From: a virus
UHGV virus genome: UHGV-1888586
Length of the DNA stretch: 20,217 nucleotides
Direction: 5' to 3' (one strand)
Part shown: piece after piece, positions 1,775-7,909 of the stretch
Numbering within the stretch: the stretch's first letter is position 1
Layout of the letters: every line of letters starts with the position of its first letter
The notes under the pieces: generated by a model
The model's database searches: none
Told to the model about the DNA's origin: nothing
The model's input: only the letters and a program-made list of their open reading frames with translations
Translations under genes and position numbers: made by a program

Positions 1775-2419
1775 ATGAATTTTCCGGGCCCAGCATCAAC
1801 TGCTTCTTATTTAAGATCTAATTACAGCAGAGATTTCTTGACTATTCAGTGTGGTGAATACACATACGGAAAACCAAGAATTGAGATTGGGATGCATGAC
1901 GACAAGCGAATTCTTTCAATTGGTGAATATTGCTCTATAGCTTTCGACGTTGTGATTTTTGTTGGAAGACAAGGTCGTCATGCGACAAATACATTAACAA
2001 GTTACCCGCTAAATATGGTTGTAGATCCTGAGTTAAGAAATGGATTTAACCCTACAGGACATATATGGCAGGCGAGCTCTGACATATTTGGGAAAGATCT
2101 TGATGTTATCATAGGGCATGATGTATGGATTGGTTCTAGATGTACAATTTTAGCAGGGGTTAATATTGGAACTGGTGCCATCATTGCCGCAGGTTCTGTT
2201 GTTACTAAAGATGTACCGCCATATGCAATTGTAGGAGGAGTACCAGCTAAGGTTATTAGATACAGACATCCTCCAGAAATAATTGATAGATTATTAAAGA
2301 CTGAATGGTGGAAGTTAAAACCTAATGAGCTGTGGAATTTGATTGGTTCATCTTTCGGGACGTCTAATATTGAAATCCCATTAAAAATATTAGAAAACAG
2401 AAGCGCTTCAGAAAAATAA
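1775..2419 (+). CDS. Hexapeptide-repeat acetyltransferase of the XAT (CatB/Vat-like) family; prophage moron
   Basis: 214 aa. Putative catalytic His in GRQGRHATNTLTSYPL (compare the CatB/Vat NH..DG.T.YPF motif), left-handed beta-helix hexapeptide repeats (IGHDVWIGSRCTILAGVNIGTGAIIAAGSVVTKDVPPYAIVGGVPAKVIRYR), and the XAT-type C-terminal tail (EIIDRLLKTEWWKLKP). The gene is clearly more AT-rich than the flanking int and virion genes. Confidence 0.8.
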   Translation: MNFPGPASTASYLRSNYSRDFLTIQCGEYTYGKPRIEIGMHDDKRILSIGEYCSIAFDVVIFVGRQGRHATNTLTSYPLNMVVDPELRNGFNPTGHIWQASSDIFGKDLDVIIGHDVWIGSRCTILAGVNIGTGAIIAAGSVVTKDVPPYAIVGGVPAKVIRYRHPPEIIDRLLKTEWWKLKPNELWNLIGSSFGTSNIEIPLKILENRSASEK

Positions 2420-2513: not shown

Positions 2514-4877
2514 TTATATATTTTCTCTCATTTCTATCATTTCAATTCTAGATAATGCTTTTTGGTAATTCCTGCGTTGTAATGCAGCTTCAAGGACTAA
2601 AGCCTCTTCATAACGAATACCATAACGTGAGCCTGCCGGAGTGACCAGAATATCTTCATATTCTGGATCTGCCTCTTCTTCATACTCTTCTTCTACTTCT
2701 TGAAACTCTGTCTCGATGTACTCCTCTTCTACATCTTCAACTACAGGAACGCTTACGAATGGATTTTGCGCAAAAGGTGAACCATCTTCATTAAGAACAG
2801 GTATCATTTCCATTTTTGGAGTCTGATACTCTTCATTCACTACTCGTTTAATCCGTGTTCCGTCTTCCAGTACCTCATCCTTTAATATCTGACGACTCTC
2901 AGTAACCATCACTGGTTTGCTTACAATTCGAGTTTTAGTAACCTGCACTGGAACTGTTGTTATGCGAGTTTTAGTAACCATTACACCTTCGTTTGTCTGA
3001 ACCTTAGTATATTGATCATCCCACTCGTCAAAGCAAAAGAATCCAAATCGGTGCACATCAAGCCCATGACGTTCAAACGCCTCCTTTGCACGTTGAGCTA
3101 TTACGCCAAAATGCCAACGAGCTCCGTCTTCTCCTTTTTCTTCTGTTCTGTCAAGATACTGAAATTGAACGAAGTCAACCTCTGACCATGCGTCAAGTAT
3201 TGTATCAGTGATTTCAAGAGGTGCAGTTTTAGCTCGCTCATCTGAAGTAACGGTAAAGGCTGTTTGAGTGAATCCACCAGACCATGGAAGTGTGCTTATT
3301 CCACAACTAAATGCATTTCCCGTTGCAGGATGCAGGTTTTTGTTTACTTGAATAGTCCCAGATCCTGATGCCTCCAGTCTAACAGAACAATTAGAAACAC
3401 CCTCGGTAGCAATTCTAACTACTGGAGATGAATCACTTGCGGTATATAACCTGAAAGAACCTTTATCACCATCGGAATAGGTAATTCTAAGCATTCTAAA
3501 TCCATTACCATCAACATCAAAAGCCCTATTCCTTAAATGGACGCCTGTTCTTTGCGTTGTGTCTGTAACCTTAGAATTTATGTAGCTTAACGTTTGTCCC
3601 TGACCATTTTCCCAACCGATTCTATATGAATTCCTCAATAACAAGGCCTTCATATAAGTTTCCACACCTTCTTCTGATGAGAATTGCCTTAGAACACTTA
3701 ATGGGAATGTTATCCCTGCCCCCCATTTTGCACCATTAGAGCTAATACTCAGCGCTTGAGTGCAGTCCTCTGTAAGACCATTGATTGTAGGATCAGCACC
3801 GGCAACTATCGATACTCCATTTGTTTTGCCTTTATTTATGGTTTCATGTACATCAACATATTCTCCATGATTGGCCACTGCAATCTCGGCACCCCATGTC
3901 GTTCCATTAGCACCAGACATTCGTTTTGCATCAAGATAAAGAGACCATACATTTGATGTAGAAACTGTTAAGTCATTTAATGCTGCGCCTACAATTCCAA
4001 TTGCCGCACCGCCCTGATTTATTTTATTGTGCGCTGCACCTGCTATACCAATTGTACCAAGAGATGCATAACTTATAAGAGTGGCATTATTTTCTATCCA
4101 TCCAAGATTTGGCTGCATTGTTCCGTTAGGGGCCATAATGTCCTTCTGACCAAGCCATGTGTTTTGTTCTCCGGATGCGTCCCGCTTACCAGAATAATCA
4201 TAGGCAGCATCACCAACAAATAATCTAGGATATCTTGCTGGGTTCACTGGCGCATCAGGTGATGACCAGACAGATCGACGCTTAAGCATCACGCATCCCG
4301 AACCAATAAATTTAGCCTCGTTATCTACAATAAAATTACCCTTATGGATAGAATTTAATAAGTACGTACCTGTAGGAACATAAACATCACCGGAAAACAA
4401 TGCAGCGGAAGCGAATGCGCCGTCCGAATCAACAACCCCTGTCGGGTCAGCACCTCCTGCAAAACCACTCCAAGTAACAGGCTTTGCTAATCCTCCGACA
4501 AATCCAGCTCCACCAGGACCCTCCAGTTCAGATCGCAGTTGATCAGGGTCATACTTCAGCACATTAGGAAAATAGAACTGCTGTGCACCATATGCATCGT
4601 ACACAGCCATGGAGTGGCCTTGCACAGTTACGAATTTGGCAATCTGTCCGTTATATACAGGGTAACCAGCGGCGTTAATGATGATTGGCTGTGCAACAGG
4701 AACGTGAGAGCCGTCTTCATTCTCCACATAAACCTGAATCTGGTTTTCAGGATTTACCGGGTCAGTGTCAATTTTACCGATATAAATTTTGCCATTAGCT
4801 ACGGCTTTAAAAGAACGCGCCATAGTGAAGAGTTGCGAAGGCATGCTTACCACAACATTTGCGGTGATATCTGACAT
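2514..4877 (-). CDS. Tailspike: P22-type N-terminal head-binding domain, divergent receptor-binding domain, C-terminal intramolecular chaperone (peptidase S74-like) domain
   Basis: 787 aa from the ATG at 4877 (GGAG 8 nt upstream); the track ORF extends 16 codons further to 4925. The first ~115 aa ([11 protein letters not shown]...[22 protein letters not shown]...[13 protein letters not shown]...NVLKYDPDQ) closely match the P22 gp9 head-binding domain. The C-terminal region has the S74 hallmark TSDERAKT followed by RWHFGVIAQ. Confidence 0.9.
2517..3245 (-). other. Predicted autocleaved C-terminal chaperone domain of the tailspike; predicted scissile Ser codon at 3243-3245
   Basis: The SDERAK motif matches the SDxRxK Ser-Lys dyad motif of intramolecular chaperone domains in endosialidases and the T5 L-shaped fibre. 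The 243-aa region also contains 12-aa tandem repeats ([12 protein letters not shown] / [12 protein letters not shown]) and an acidic tract ([30 protein letters not shown]). Confidence 0.6.
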
Positions 4878-4902
4878 TTCATTGCTCCAGACGAATGATA
4901 TG

Positions 4903-4925
4903 ATGCAACCATGATGTGATTGCAT
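4903..4925. promoter_or_regulatory. Candidate operator palindrome in the mnt-tailspike divergent intergenic region
   Basis: ATGCAA-N11-TTGCAT inverted repeat within the 121-bp spacer between the divergently arranged tailspike ATG (4877) and mnt ATG (4999). The right half-site doubles as a possible -35 (TTGCAT) for mnt. Confidence 0.3.
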
Positions 4926-4998
4926 ACCGAAATGGTACTATTGAGTATTTATCCAGTAGGTTACGATGCCATTCCACCCAACTGGTGAGGCATCAAGG

Positions 4999-5265
4999 AT
5001 GTACAGCAAATACGATGAGGCGCAGTTTCACTTGAGACTTCCGCATGAACTCCACGCGAAAATTAAGCAGCGTGCGAAGATGAATAACAGATCGCTGAAC
5101 TCAGAGATAATTGCAGCGATTGAAGAATCGTTGGCTAAACAAAGCTCTGCATCCGTTTACATTGACGATGCAGAGCGTATGGCAGAACAACAATCTGATA
5201 TGGTTAAGAAAATGGTTTTTGAAACGCTTAAGACCATGTATAGCAATAATAAAAAGGAAACATAG
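4999..5265 (+). CDS. mnt: Mnt-like ribbon-helix-helix repressor (Arc/MetJ superfamily)
   Basis: 88 aa from the ATG at 4999; the track ORF starts at 4966. Clear similarity to P22 Mnt over the whole length: QFHLRLPHELHAKIKQRAKMNNRSLNSEI versus P22 HFNFRMPMEVREKLKFRAEANGRSMNSEL, and C-terminal DAERMAEQQSDMVKKMVFETLK versus DAERLADEQSELVKKMVFDTLK. Confidence 0.85.
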   Translation: MYSKYDEAQFHLRLPHELHAKIKQRAKMNNRSLNSEIIAAIEESLAKQSSASVYIDDAERMAEQQSDMVKKMVFETLKTMYSNNKKET

Positions 5266-5335
5266 AAATCTAGTTTCCGGCTAAAATGGCATTGCCTTCA
5301 TGCTATCCTGTGAAAAACTAAGGAGAGTTAACCAT

Positions 5336-5821
5336 ATGAAAAAATTACTGTTAATTATCCCGCTTCTGCTGGTTGGATGCGCAAAAGTAAGTGACTATCA
5401 AGCAAGTTGCGAACAACGCTATCAAAAGCTTAGCGATATGGCTAATTGCCTTGATGCCAGTGTGAAGAACGACTCACGCATGGCATCAGCACCAACACCT
5501 AAGCTGTATGTCCTTGCTGCAAAGATGCTCGGGCAAGGTGTCGATGAAGGCAAGATAAGTGACGCACAGGCAAGACTTGAGCTTCAGAATCTTTATGTTC
5601 AATTACAAAGCCAAGAACAAGCCCAACAAATAGCACAAAGCCAAGCATTCCAGCAGGCTTTATTGAATTATCAGGCTGTAAACACAATGCAAGCGATCGA
5701 GCAAAAAGCGAGACAGCCTGTTATAACTCAACCCTATCCAACACGCGTTGACACTTACACAAACTGCAATTCAGGGTTTGGAAATACAGTCACATGCAAC
5801 AGTAGCAGTAACATAAGATAA
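5336..5821 (+). CDS. Prophage lipoprotein, unknown function, in the sieA-equivalent position
   Basis: 161 aa from the ATG at 5336 with AAGGAG upstream; the track ORF starts at 5300. Signal peptide MKKLLLIIPLLLVGC with lipobox LVGC, Ala at +2, a Gln-rich helical middle, and a Cys-containing C-terminus (TYTNCNSGFGNTVTCNSS). Confidence 0.75.
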   Translation: MKKLLLIIPLLLVGCAKVSDYQASCEQRYQKLSDMANCLDASVKNDSRMASAPTPKLYVLAAKMLGQGVDEGKISDAQARLELQNLYVQLQSQEQAQQIAQSQAFQQALLNYQAVNTMQAIEQKARQPVITQPYPTRVDTYTNCNSGFGNTVTCNSSSNIR

Positions 5822-5911
5822 CAATCAGCAAAGGTATCTCCTATGCAGAGTTGTACGATAACCCTCGCGTTCTACATATTTGGTTTTTGCACGTTCCTGG
5901 TGTTTGAAAAG

Positions 5912-7909
5912 CTATTCTGACAACGCATCAGACTTAGCCCCCTGCGTCAGAGCGTTAATTGCCTTTTGTGCCTGCTGCATTGCTTTCTCAAAGGCTGTTG
6001 ATCCGCGTGGGGTGTTTGCCATTCGGAGCATTGCATTTCTGAATGGCTCGCTCTCATATGCGCGAGTAAGAAGTCCGTAGCTTACTGCTGCGCCAGTTGT
6101 CGCCGGGTTCATTGCTGTCCCATATCCGATAATGAACGGGATGGTTTGCTGCCCTGTTGGTGTTGTTACTGCCGCTTTTGCAGCCTGCTGCGTGGATTGC
6201 AGGTAGTTTTTCAATCCTTTCAGATAAGCAGCGTCCTGCCCCTTAAATGTGATGCCAGTCTGGTTTTGCAGGATGTTAAGCTGTCGAAGGAACTGGTCAG
6301 GGGATCCTCCAGATTTCTCCATCGCCTTTCCAATGATGCCATTGCGCATTTGCGCCCTGCCAACACGACCAACTGAGTTATACAGCGTCTTAATTTCAGA
6401 TTTGTTCTTGCTGAATAGCATGTTGTTGACAACTTCCGGCGTCAGGTCGCCTTTCATGAGAACATTCTTCAGCCTGGTATTCTTTAGTTTCGCCGCTTCG
6501 TCAGCGTAGACGGCATTGGCCTGCTGATATTTACGGAGAGTATCGTTGCCAAGATTCTGACCAATGGCACCATTGATATCGTCTGTCATCGCCTTGTAAA
6601 CGCGCTGAATGGCGGCATCGGAACGGTTTGGTAACACTGGTCGCTCACCCTTCACGTCCATTCTGAACTGGCTGCGCAGATCGCTTAATTGCTTCAAATC
6701 CAGATTTACCGGACCATCAGGACCAGCATTGCGAACAAGCTCATCACGATAGGACTGAAGTTTTGAAATAGTCTCGTTATCGGCGACCTTACCAAGCTTC
6801 TGCAGGTTAGATATTTCTGTATCAATCTGCTGAATTGCTCGAGCAGGCTGGATATTGACTCCCGCCATTGCATTCTGAACCTGCTCAAGACGGTTCCCTG
6901 CAGCACGACGAATTCCTGATGTTTTCGCTTTAAGGCTGTCAATAACAACAGCTGGATCATACTCACCGAATTTATCAGCAAATCTCTGCACCAACTGGCT
7001 TCTCGCTTCCTGTTGCGTTGCTCTCATCCCGCTTGTGCCAGCCAGGGGGATATTTTCCGCTGTCGTCTGCGCCATTTTCCCGACGCGGGAAGTAGGCTGT
7101 AACAGGTCTGTGGTGTGCAGAGGAACTCCTTCACGCTCTGCAAATCTGATAGCCTGCTGCGCTTCTGGCGCAATAGCACCACGAACGCCACGATAAGCAG
7201 CACCTAACCCACGTCCGGCAGCGTTAATAGCACCGCCAGCCAGCACACCAACGCCTAAATCGGTAGCAAGTGCTTCCGCATCATCTTTCATACTGTTTGC
7301 AGCAAGTGATCCAACTGCGTTTTCTGCGAGAAGGCGAGTTGCCCCCTGAGCAATTCGACCAGCAAGTGTTGGTGCCTGTACCGCCGCTCTCTCAACGCCA
7401 GAAGGAGTGAGGTAAGGCAATGCCTCAGCAAATACCCTGCCCTCTGTAGTTTGTGGAGTCAGCGCGCCTTGCTGAAGGCCAAAGTCCTGCTCTAATCCCT
7501 GCGTTGTTACTCGTGGCGCTGGTTGATATGTACCATCACCAATGCCGAGTTTACCGCCAGCCCAAGCCGCCGCACTTGTTACAGCATCGGCAACTGATGC
7601 AGGTATGTTTGCCACGTTCACGCCAGCCTGCACCAGTCCGCGACCAGTCTCTCTTACTGCTTCGCCAAGATCAGACATAAATCCACTTTGCTGTGGTTGT
7701 TGCTGTGCTAATGGTTGTTGTGTCTCCACTGGCTGCACAGATGGCAATGGATAGGCAGCATAGAAAGCTTGCTTAGCCTGCTCTGCATTTTCTCCGGCTT
7801 GCGGGGCCACGACTTCATTGAAGTATTGCTCCTGAGCCTGCGCTTTTTGTTCTGGTGCTAACGCCTGATACTGTGGAGAGGCGATAACATCTTTCCATGC
7901 TTTAGCCAT
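5912..7909 (-). CDS. Ejection (DNA transfer) protein, P22 gp16-like
   Basis: 665 aa, last gene of the 7-20-16 ejection trio, Gln/Ala-rich composition; start codon overlaps the gp20-like stop. Called mainly on synteny and size (P22 gp16 about 609 aa). Confidence 0.75.
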   Translation of the reverse strand: MAKAWKDVIASPQYQALAPEQKAQAQEQYFNEVVAPQAGENAEQAKQAFYAAYPLPSVQPVETQQPLAQQQPQQSGFMSDLGEAVRETGRGLVQAGVNVANIPASVADAVTSAAAWAGGKLGIGDGTYQPAPRVTTQGLEQDFGLQQGALTPQTTEGRVFAEALPYLTPSGVERAAVQAPTLAGRIAQGATRLLAENAVGSLAANSMKDDAEALATDLGVGVLAGGAINAAGRGLGAAYRGVRGAIAPEAQQAIRFAEREGVPLHTTDLLQPTSRVGKMAQTTAENIPLAGTSGMRATQQEARSQLVQRFADKFGEYDPAVVIDSLKAKTSGIRRAAGNRLEQVQNAMAGVNIQPARAIQQIDTEISNLQKLGKVADNETISKLQSYRDELVRNAGPDGPVNLDLKQLSDLRSQFRMDVKGERPVLPNRSDAAIQRVYKAMTDDINGAIGQNLGNDTLRKYQQANAVYADEAAKLKNTRLKNVLMKGDLTPEVVNNMLFSKNKSEIKTLYNSVGRVGRAQMRNGIIGKAMEKSGGSPDQFLRQLNILQNQTGITFKGQDAAYLKGLKNYLQSTQQAAKAAVTTPTGQQTIPFIIGYGTAMNPATTGAAVSYGLLTRAYESEPFRNAMLRMANTPRGSTAFEKAMQQAQKAINALTQGAKSDALSE

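Follow-up and report, generated by a model that had tools for sequence, protein, structure and literature searches.

In phage P22, the interval between mnt and gene 16 is occupied by sieA, whose product blocks DNA entry at the cell envelope and can be escaped through mutations in gp16 and gp20 (PMC10883804). Leavitt et al. 2024 reported sieA in 22 of 66 P22-like phages (PMC10883804). In the P22-like prophage BTP1, an antisense RNA named STnc6030 is expressed in lysogens and has been reported to exclude the cognate phage (PMC7067206). Here we analysed a stretch of 20,217 nucleotides (nt) of the virus genome UHGV-1888586, a P22-like E. coli prophage; in this stretch, hereafter the window, the sieA slot holds a lipoprotein precursor gene (5336..5821, + strand) that encodes 161 amino acids (aa) and belongs to phrog_6067. 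A first-pass annotation had proposed that this lipoprotein excludes superinfecting phages or blocks their injection. That interpretation is partly supported by our comparisons, and the positional and regulatory equivalence to sieA is, at the level of sequence, much stronger than a reader of the window alone could know.

The placement of the lipoprotein gene between mnt and gene 16, where P22 has sieA, had been read from the window, and both the synteny of the window and the exact replacement of the open reading frame (ORF) in two related contigs, L050 and L081, bear it out. Using tblastn with SieA type A (from P22) and type B (from HS1, with the query taken from E. coli HS), we obtained no match in the window even at E <= 1, in agreement with the earlier statement that sieA is missing. 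At the same threshold, types A and B were absent from all of the ~88 lipoprotein loci examined. We compared gene positions in 80 IMG/VR contigs, in five species genomes (the yield of a contig scan with one genome per species) and in Gally and Brookers phages; in each case with a detectable gene 16 homologue, ~20-100 nt separated the end of gene 16 from the lipoprotein gene, which was on the mnt strand. The order mnt-side, lipoprotein, gene 16 was found in E. coli, Salmonella, Proteus, Providencia, Tatumella and Serratia, down to ~30% identity. The upstream side varies: the window has mnt alone, Gally has an opposite-strand lipoprotein gene in addition to mnt, and other loci have mnt-orf59a or an entire immI region with arc and ant.

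The boundaries of the replacement are sharp. From orf59a to the lipoprotein ATG, L050 and L081 carry ~415 nt that are almost the same as the P22 interval between orf59a and sieA; this match takes in the mnt terminator and the sieA promoter as annotated in P22, together with the antisense hkcC ORF and the Shine-Dalgarno (SD) sequence, and homology to P22 ends at ...CAAAACTAAGGAG, that is, at the SD itself. The window retains the last 27-32 nt of this P22-type leader (5299-5325). On the downstream side, three unrelated sequences begin directly at the lipoprotein stop codon, each leading to a different gene 16 type (L096, L097, L108). Because homology stops at the SD on one side and at the stop codon on the other, the cassette is ORF-precise at both ends, and the alignments show the lipoprotein gene of L050 and L081 as an alternative cassette to sieA, exchanged by a precise ORF swap. 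In the window, the downstream boundary falls at 5819-5830. As a separate observation, the hkcC ORF, which lies antisense between orf59a and sieA in P22 (L008, 3892-4212), is not annotated in BK000583; it is kept at ~98% identity in L050 and L081, where the lipoprotein gene has taken the place of sieA.

The retained leader segment proved to be a recurrent junction. It consists of the 27 nt CATGCTATCCTGTGAAAAACTAAGGAG at 5299..5325 on the + strand, aligned with P22 and with L050/L081, and in P22 terms it runs from the last three bases of the annotated sieA promoter through the SD; we refer to it as the ‘socket’. When IMG/VR was searched for exact copies of the 27-nt junction CATGSTATCCTGYRMAAAACTAAGGAG, 95 contigs were recovered (L096-L190), in which we defined the occupant as the ORF of at least 60 codons starting 2-25 nt 3' of the socket. 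The lipoprotein phrog_6067 was the occupant in 29 contigs, followed by phrog_8100 in 24, SieA type A in nine, phrog_2651 in eight, phrog_5962 in seven, phrog_21338 in four, phrog_7294 and phrog_10450 in three each, an unnamed 149-aa protein with no PHROG match in two, and the YobH-like phrog_21022 in one; five contigs had no ORF of at least 60 codons behind the socket. At least ten unrelated ORF families are thus found behind the same 27 nt, and all ten carry an N-terminal transmembrane (TM) segment or a signal peptide; SieA is the sole characterised member of this set. A convergent gene 16 homologue was present in nearly all contigs with enough downstream DNA, usually ~20-35 nt past the stop codon, whereas the contigs with phrog_7294 and phrog_21022 gave no gene 16 match. 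Upstream of the socket, mnt or orf59a was found in most contigs. The socket core CAAAACTAAGGAG is also located 5' of the type-B sieA of HS1. To our knowledge this pattern has not been described before in the searchable literature; Villafane et al. 2008 noted only the rapid flux of the ‘ant moron’.

The ORF itself is intact, with a start ATG at 5336, 161 codons and a stop at 5819-5821, and an SD (AAGGAG, 5320-5325) is located 10 nt 5' of the ATG. A further in-frame ATG upstream, at 5300 (173 aa), lacks an SD, and homologues from other genera begin at MKK. The predicted signal peptide (residues 1-14) and the lipobox L-V-G-C together span 5336..5380 on the + strand, with the codon for Cys15 at 5378-5380. 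The precursor begins with MKKLLLIIPLLLVGC followed by AKV, and predicted cleavage would leave Cys15 as the first mature residue. This N-terminus, MKK-LLLIIPLL-LVGC, combines two basic residues, a hydrophobic core and a lipobox that fits the pattern [LVI][ASTVI][GAS]C within the first ~35 residues. A 161-aa lipoprotein with lipobox LVGC and Ala at position +2 had already been called in the first pass, and the call fits most of the family: the PROSITE-type lipoprotein rule is satisfied by the window protein, by 31/31 family members in one alignment (A1) and by 85/94 in a wider set (A4), Cys15 is invariant in the family alignment, and the +2 residue is A, V, T, Q or M across the family and never Asp. 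In the Lol pathway of Enterobacteriaceae, a +2 residue other than Asp predicts release to the outer membrane. For the lipidated product, the inner leaflet of the outer membrane is the most likely destination, from which it would face the periplasm. The signal peptide is the only hydrophobic segment, the mature part has no TM segment, and the SieA motif FxRYPxEAxxFNK is absent.

Three parts can be distinguished in the mature protein. The first is an N-terminal helical domain (precursor residues ~16-90, 5381..5605, + strand), seen in alignments A1 and A4 and in the AlphaFold2 (AF2) models, with the invariant pair Cys25/Cys38. The second is a Gln-rich segment (precursor residues 84-128, 5585..5719, + strand; 15 Gln in 45 residues), and the third a variable C-terminal beta-hairpin (5747..5815, + strand) with the motif C..GN..xC and the pair Cys144/Cys154, of which at least two sequence types occur across the family. 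The AF2 model of the mature protein, built from a 95-sequence alignment, reached a mean predicted local distance difference test score (pLDDT) of 79, and within it mature residues 1-80 form a compact helical domain with pLDDT 88-98. The final helix of this domain is predicted to extend into a helix of ~50 residues, followed by a low-confidence linker and then by the beta-hairpin with the second Cys pair, which is likewise modelled at low confidence. The long helix covers precursor residues ~76-125 (DSSP on the AF2 models: H76-125 in the precursor, H62-111 in the mature protein) and includes the Gln-rich segment, in line with the Gln-rich helical core noted in the first pass. Both Cys pairs are invariant or nearly so across the family alignments, a pattern that would suit a periplasmic protein with two disulfides. 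Comparison of the AF2 models with solved and predicted viral structures gave no significant likeness.

The gene falls into a family already on record, phrog_6067 (‘hypothetical protein’), which is uncharacterised; the window protein matches this profile over its full length (residues 1-161 on profile positions 1-161, E = 1.7e-109), and the annotation is ‘unknown function’. Other profile searches were negative: the best Pfam hit was DUF2802 at E = 0.39, which is not a family match, the only NCBIfam match, to GspK, was spurious (18.9 bits, with the cut-off at 130), no family of the PADLOC-DB 2.0 defence models was hit at E <= 0.1, and nothing better than E = 0.49 was found in the PDB profile search. 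The name ‘GspK’ carried by one homologue probably derives from the same spurious NCBIfam match. We identified 98 homologues with 47-99% identity across Enterobacterales, nearly all annotated ‘hypothetical’, in Escherichia, Citrobacter, Serratia, Klebsiella aerogenes, Cronobacter, Yersinia, Pectobacterium, Morganella, Providencia and Xenorhabdus; further family members occur in Proteus (phage Brookers) and Tatumella.

Within E. coli, the gene was present in 186 of 5426 complete genomes (3.4%), compared with 35 for sieA type A and 21 for type B (~1% together). Carriers include LF82, in prophage Gally, and O104:H4 C227-11, where the gene is annotated ‘lipoprotein’; B7A is among the genomes that match the wider 4900-5950 segment. 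One genome, E. coli 980-2 (NZ_CP127324.1), carries the lipoprotein gene at 2.70 Mb and a type-B sieA at 1.29 Mb, in separate P22-like prophages, and offers a natural strain for asking whether the effects of the two are additive. The protein is under strong purifying selection, with a ratio of nonsynonymous to synonymous substitution rates (dN/dS) of 0.03-0.09 against E. coli orthologues. Across 54 alleles, variation is synonymous only at 66 codons and changes the amino acid at 28. Even between genera, where identity is 50-60%, the lipobox and the Cys residues do not vary.

The N-terminal domain has a much wider distribution. A HMMER scan of 1.84 billion representatives returned 256 clusters at E <= 1e-3, mostly matching positions 1-102; most are lipoproteins of 125-190 aa, and many also have a C-terminal Cys hairpin. 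They share the motif GC..V..YQ..CE....F.....CL......KLY.L.A..L...V..G.ISD.DAR.ELQ.LYV., the distant members belong to no Pfam family, and the only PHROG matched is phrog_6067. A word-index profile search with distant members found only 20 proteins, and a cluster look-up of remote members returned ‘hypothetical protein’ as the sole name. In a Serratia member with ~30% identity the order mnt, X, gene 16 is kept in a P22-like prophage. In Pectobacterium, members are fixed at the chromosomal locus dsbB-holE-X-ycgN in at least two species, and a metagenomic (Proteobacteria) member sits among uvrC, UDG and earP. Because phage-borne and chromosomal contexts both occur, the phage gene is, as far as gene contexts can tell, a recruited member of an unnamed superfamily of periplasmic lipoproteins. 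The first-pass annotation had named homology to a housekeeping lipoprotein as one finding that would speak against its proposal, and distant chromosomal homologues with a fixed position were indeed found (in Pectobacterium and in metagenomic Proteobacteria), but those too have no known function. The Pectobacterium chromosomal homologue (L090, L095) adjoins a holE-like gene (DNA polymerase III theta) between dsbB and ycgN, and Proteus phage Brookers has a theta-like gene near its tailspike gene; the holE link may be a coincidence or a prophage remnant.

The availability of RNA-seq data from strain LF82 allowed us to assess expression of the 97%-identical Gally orthologue (LF82_138 / GALLYPH_13). 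Its normalised value in lysogeny broth (LB) was 70.2, against a prophage median of 15.6, making it the second-highest Gally gene in LB behind the c2 repressor (PMC9928086 S1 Table). This is just under the five-fold moron cut-off of 78 used by the authors, which explains why Gally was reported to have no morons (PMC9928086). Log2 levels rose from ~6.1 in LB to ~8 in Dulbecco's modified Eagle's medium (DMEM) and to 10.3 in macrophages at 1 h, while the neighbouring Gally ejection-protein genes stayed at background, with log2 values of 2.5-4 (PMC9928086). Expression from the prophage, which had been postulated from strand and position, is therefore documented for the lysogen-borne Gally orthologue, not for the exact window prophage. 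Gally-type prophages, L030 and L065 among them, have a second lipoprotein gene between mnt and the first, on the late strand. In Gally this is LF82_139 / GALLYPH_14 (L001, 4447-4866, - strand), which encodes 139 aa with the lipobox LSGC, matches no Pfam family and is expressed above LF82_138 in DMEM and macrophages, at log2 ~10-11.

How the transcript arises seems to differ between prophages. The first-pass annotation had the gene co-transcribed with mnt, which is plausible in the window: 70 nt separate the mnt stop from the lipoprotein ATG, the spacer (5266..5298, + strand) contains only a weak GGAAAC...GTTTCC hairpin (fold z = -2.0) with no U-tract or T-run, and a promoter/terminator scan of 5266..5298 detected no consensus sigma-70 promoter. 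The claim does not extend to other prophages, in which the lipoprotein gene is separated from mnt and must have its own promoter, since either an opposite-strand gene or a terminator and ~415 nt intervene.

We tentatively propose that the lipoprotein serves superinfection exclusion of P22-like phages at the cell envelope, a reading that we place just short of probable; if a self-directed variant that protects the phage's own progeny is counted with it, exclusion in the broad sense becomes slightly probable. The protein is a candidate for this function because it is a lysogen-expressed envelope protein that replaces sieA exactly and does not coexist with sieA in the slot, and because all alternative cassettes at this position encode envelope proteins. 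Given its topology as a lipoprotein, any exclusion would act from the periplasmic or outer-membrane side. After export, lipidation at Cys15 and sorting to the inner leaflet of the outer membrane, the disulfide-stabilised helical domain, the Gln-rich helix of ~50 residues and the Cys-clamped hairpin would project into the periplasm. There they could interfere with the outer-membrane and periplasmic steps of DNA delivery, either with assembly of the gp7/gp20/gp16 conduit or with a host envelope factor that the conduit needs, in contrast to SieA, which works at the inner membrane. Lipoproteins of 97-100% identity are paired with at least three gp16 types and with several gp20, gp7 and needle types, and when we looked for co-variation of the lipoprotein with the type of resident ejection protein we found none. 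This independent assortment agrees with a moron whose target is either the incoming phages or some component that is conserved or supplied by the host.

A more far-reaching proposal can be built on the socket. It could be a dedicated cassette site whose swapped envelope proteins, at least ten in number, would each be a distinct exclusion device against P22-type DNA delivery; the lipoprotein, as the commonest occupant in E. coli, would then be the first Gram-negative exclusion factor acting on the outer-membrane or periplasmic side, intercepting the gp7/gp20/gp16 conduit or a needed host periplasmic factor, and recruited from the unnamed superfamily. In this full form the proposal strikes us as unlikely.

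Several points weigh against exclusion as the function of the lipoprotein. The literature searched holds no exclusion test of any family member, nor a characterised lipoprotein exclusion factor from a P22-like phage, and our searches found no similarity to any exclusion protein. Relatives of the N-terminal domain occur in non-phage contexts (the dsbB-holE-X-ycgN locus of Pectobacterium and the metagenomic contig near uvrC), which implies an ancestral function that is not peculiar to P22-like phages. Nor does the protein bear the mark of an arms-race interface: purifying selection on it is strong, and it has no hypervariable patch. The positional argument is guilt by association, as nine of the ten socket families are uncharacterised. 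Finally, the orthologue and its neighbours are induced ~16-fold in macrophages, which would fit a host-adaptation moron equally well (PMC9928086).

This last point leads to the rival that survives best, namely that the lipoprotein alters envelope physiology to the benefit of the lysogen (stress, survival in serum or macrophages, adhesion) in the manner of Bor, Lom or TraT and has no anti-phage role. The rise of LF82_138 from LB through DMEM to macrophages in parallel with LF82_139 (PMC9928086) speaks for it, as do the stable chromosomal family members, the purifying selection and the spread of the gene through pathogenic lineages, including LF82, O104:H4 C227-11 and B7A. However, the induction in macrophages spans the five rightmost Gally genes, the tailspike gene among them, and is thus regional instead of gene-specific; no homology to Bor, TraT or Lom was found; and a pure fitness role sits uneasily with the precise substitution of sieA and the all-envelope cassettes in a slot whose sole known function is exclusion. 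We regard host fitness as the sole function as rather unlikely, though it must be taken seriously.

A different possibility is that the lipoprotein is self-directed and keeps the phage's own released virions from ejecting their DNA into lysogens, into siblings undergoing lysis or into debris of the outer membrane, in the way that T5 Llp acts on FhuA. Such protection would require the same envelope location and lysogen expression as exclusion. The concept is present in the literature as ‘anti-Kronos’, and with the very high spontaneous induction of Gally, ~1 virion per cell, losses to self-adsorption would be large. Since no co-variation of the lipoprotein with the ejection proteins, needle or tailspike of the resident phage was seen, a self-specific blocker would need a conserved or host target. 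Progeny protection is a mechanistic sub-case of exclusion, inseparable from it by sequence, and as the specific explanation it seems to us quite improbable.

Lower still we rate the idea that the transcript and not the protein is the active element, reading through as an antisense RNA into the 3' end of gene 16 and acting on incoming or resident late transcripts like STnc6030. The 90-nt layout permits this: a scan of the region from the lipoprotein stop to the gene 16 stop (5822..5911; fold z = +0.26) found no + strand intrinsic terminator before the convergent gene, and the lipoprotein transcript may consequently continue antisense into gene 16. Selection, however, acts on the protein, as the low dN/dS, the 66 codons with synonymous variation only and the invariant lipobox and Cys residues indicate, and the joining of the same lipoprotein to three unrelated downstream sequences means that no conserved antisense target travels with it. 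For the first of these reasons, an antisense effect is possible at most as an addition and not as the main function.

Any other role, or none, is the least plausible of all: outer-membrane lipoproteins do occur in phage lysis cassettes and an RHH (ribbon-helix-helix) gene followed by a small ORF resembles a toxin-antitoxin layout, but the gene is on the lysogenic strand, at a distance from the lysis cassette, and its expression coincides with silent late genes, and a neutral passenger is at odds with purifying selection and presence in 186 genomes. We rejected an o-spanin-like lysis lipoprotein on strand, expression, size, the lack of a C-terminal TM segment and the lack of proline-rich character, and a toxin-antitoxin pair with the RHH protein Mnt on the separability of mnt and the lipoprotein gene in many prophages. 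We also rejected an inhibitor of a muralytic ejection protein: the annotation pipeline PGAP tags some gp16 orthologues as ‘lytic transglycosylase domain-containing’, but the gp16 of the window is without any Pfam domain.

Should exclusion by the lipoprotein prove true, escape mutants in gp7, gp20, gp16 or the needle would provide a second, independent handle on conduit assembly. How short-tailed phages build their envelope channel is still being worked out, and SieA, at the inner membrane, is the only genetic probe. The gene is common and may for this reason influence how susceptible clinical strains are to transduction and to phages of the P22 type. Furthermore, the socket yields nine uncharacterised candidate envelope factors, the lipoprotein and eight besides. 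If the gene is instead a macrophage-induced fitness factor, it would be relevant to the biology of adherent-invasive E. coli.

The neighbouring genes of the window are those of a P22-like prophage. Upstream, mnt (4966..5265, + strand) encodes a ribbon-helix-helix repressor (Pfam Arc, 1.1e-14; Repressor_Mnt, 3.9e-12) with 47% identity to P22 Mnt, and its true start is probably Met12 at 4999; the immI region here consists of mnt only, with no arc and no ant. The convergent gene 16 homologue (5912..7909, - strand) encodes an ejection protein 99% identical to the Gally ‘injection protein similar to P22 gp13’, and beyond it follow gp20 (PF16928) and gp7 (PF25688). In the tailspike (2514-4925, - strand), the head-binding domain of P22 is combined with a Peptidase_S74 domain, an intramolecular chaperone. 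Against 50,697 phage records, the N-terminal ~390 nt of the gene alone were matched at the DNA level, and nothing close was found for the receptor-binding body. A promoter-like site (CTGACA-17-AATGAT) within 4871-4899 overlaps the probable tailspike start codon. At the left end of the window are the integrase and tRNA-Arg(CCT). Between integrase and tailspike genes, 1775-2419 (+ strand) encodes a hexapeptide-repeat O-acetyltransferase that is Vat/CatB/WbbJ-like (E ~1e-30, below all NCBIfam cut-offs) and is probably a lysogenic-conversion gene for acetylation of surface polysaccharide. This is presumably the slot where CUS-3 carries neuO.

Compared with known systems, the lipoprotein has several partial counterparts, and neither a sequence nor a fold relationship to SieA, Cor, Llp, Ltp, TraT or Bor was found. 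Bor, TraT and Lom are likewise envelope morons expressed in lysogens, and induction by host conditions resembles the LF82 data, but they show no homology and their genes are not in the exclusion slot. Cor (phi80/N15/HK022) and Llp (T5) are also small phage-encoded lipoproteins, which block FhuA and DNA entry at the outer membrane. Cor phrog_1119 is matched at E = 0.0058 over residues 1-31 only, which corresponds to the signal peptide and does not amount to homology of the mature protein. Furthermore, Cor and Llp are ~60-80 aa long and belong to siphoviruses that use FhuA, whereas P22-like phages use O-antigen or capsule and outer-membrane contacts. The nearest mechanistic analogy to exclusion by the window protein is Ltp of Streptococcus phage TP-J34, a lipid-anchored helical prophage lipoprotein that binds the tape-measure protein, intercepts this conduit-forming protein on the outer side of the cytoplasmic membrane and blocks DNA injection (cited in PMC10883804), albeit in a Gram-positive system and with no sequence or fold match. 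STnc6030 shares the inter-gene slot and the strand, but acts as RNA only, where the locus described here holds a conserved protein-coding gene.

The closest relationship is that to SieA of P22 (phrog_7745; types A, B and C, PMC10883804), although the two proteins differ in kind: SieA crosses the inner membrane with 3-4 TM segments, lacks a signal peptide and has its FxRYPxEAxxFNK motif in the cytoplasm, whereas the lipoprotein carries a single, cleavable lipoprotein signal and does not resemble SieA in sequence. What they share is the slot, where they are mutually exclusive, the mnt strand convergent with gene 16, in related prophages the upstream promoter, leader and SD, a similar size (161 against 162-164 aa), expression from the prophage and a location in the envelope, which for the lipoprotein is predicted. 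The equivalence of the two genes is therefore one of position and not of family membership.

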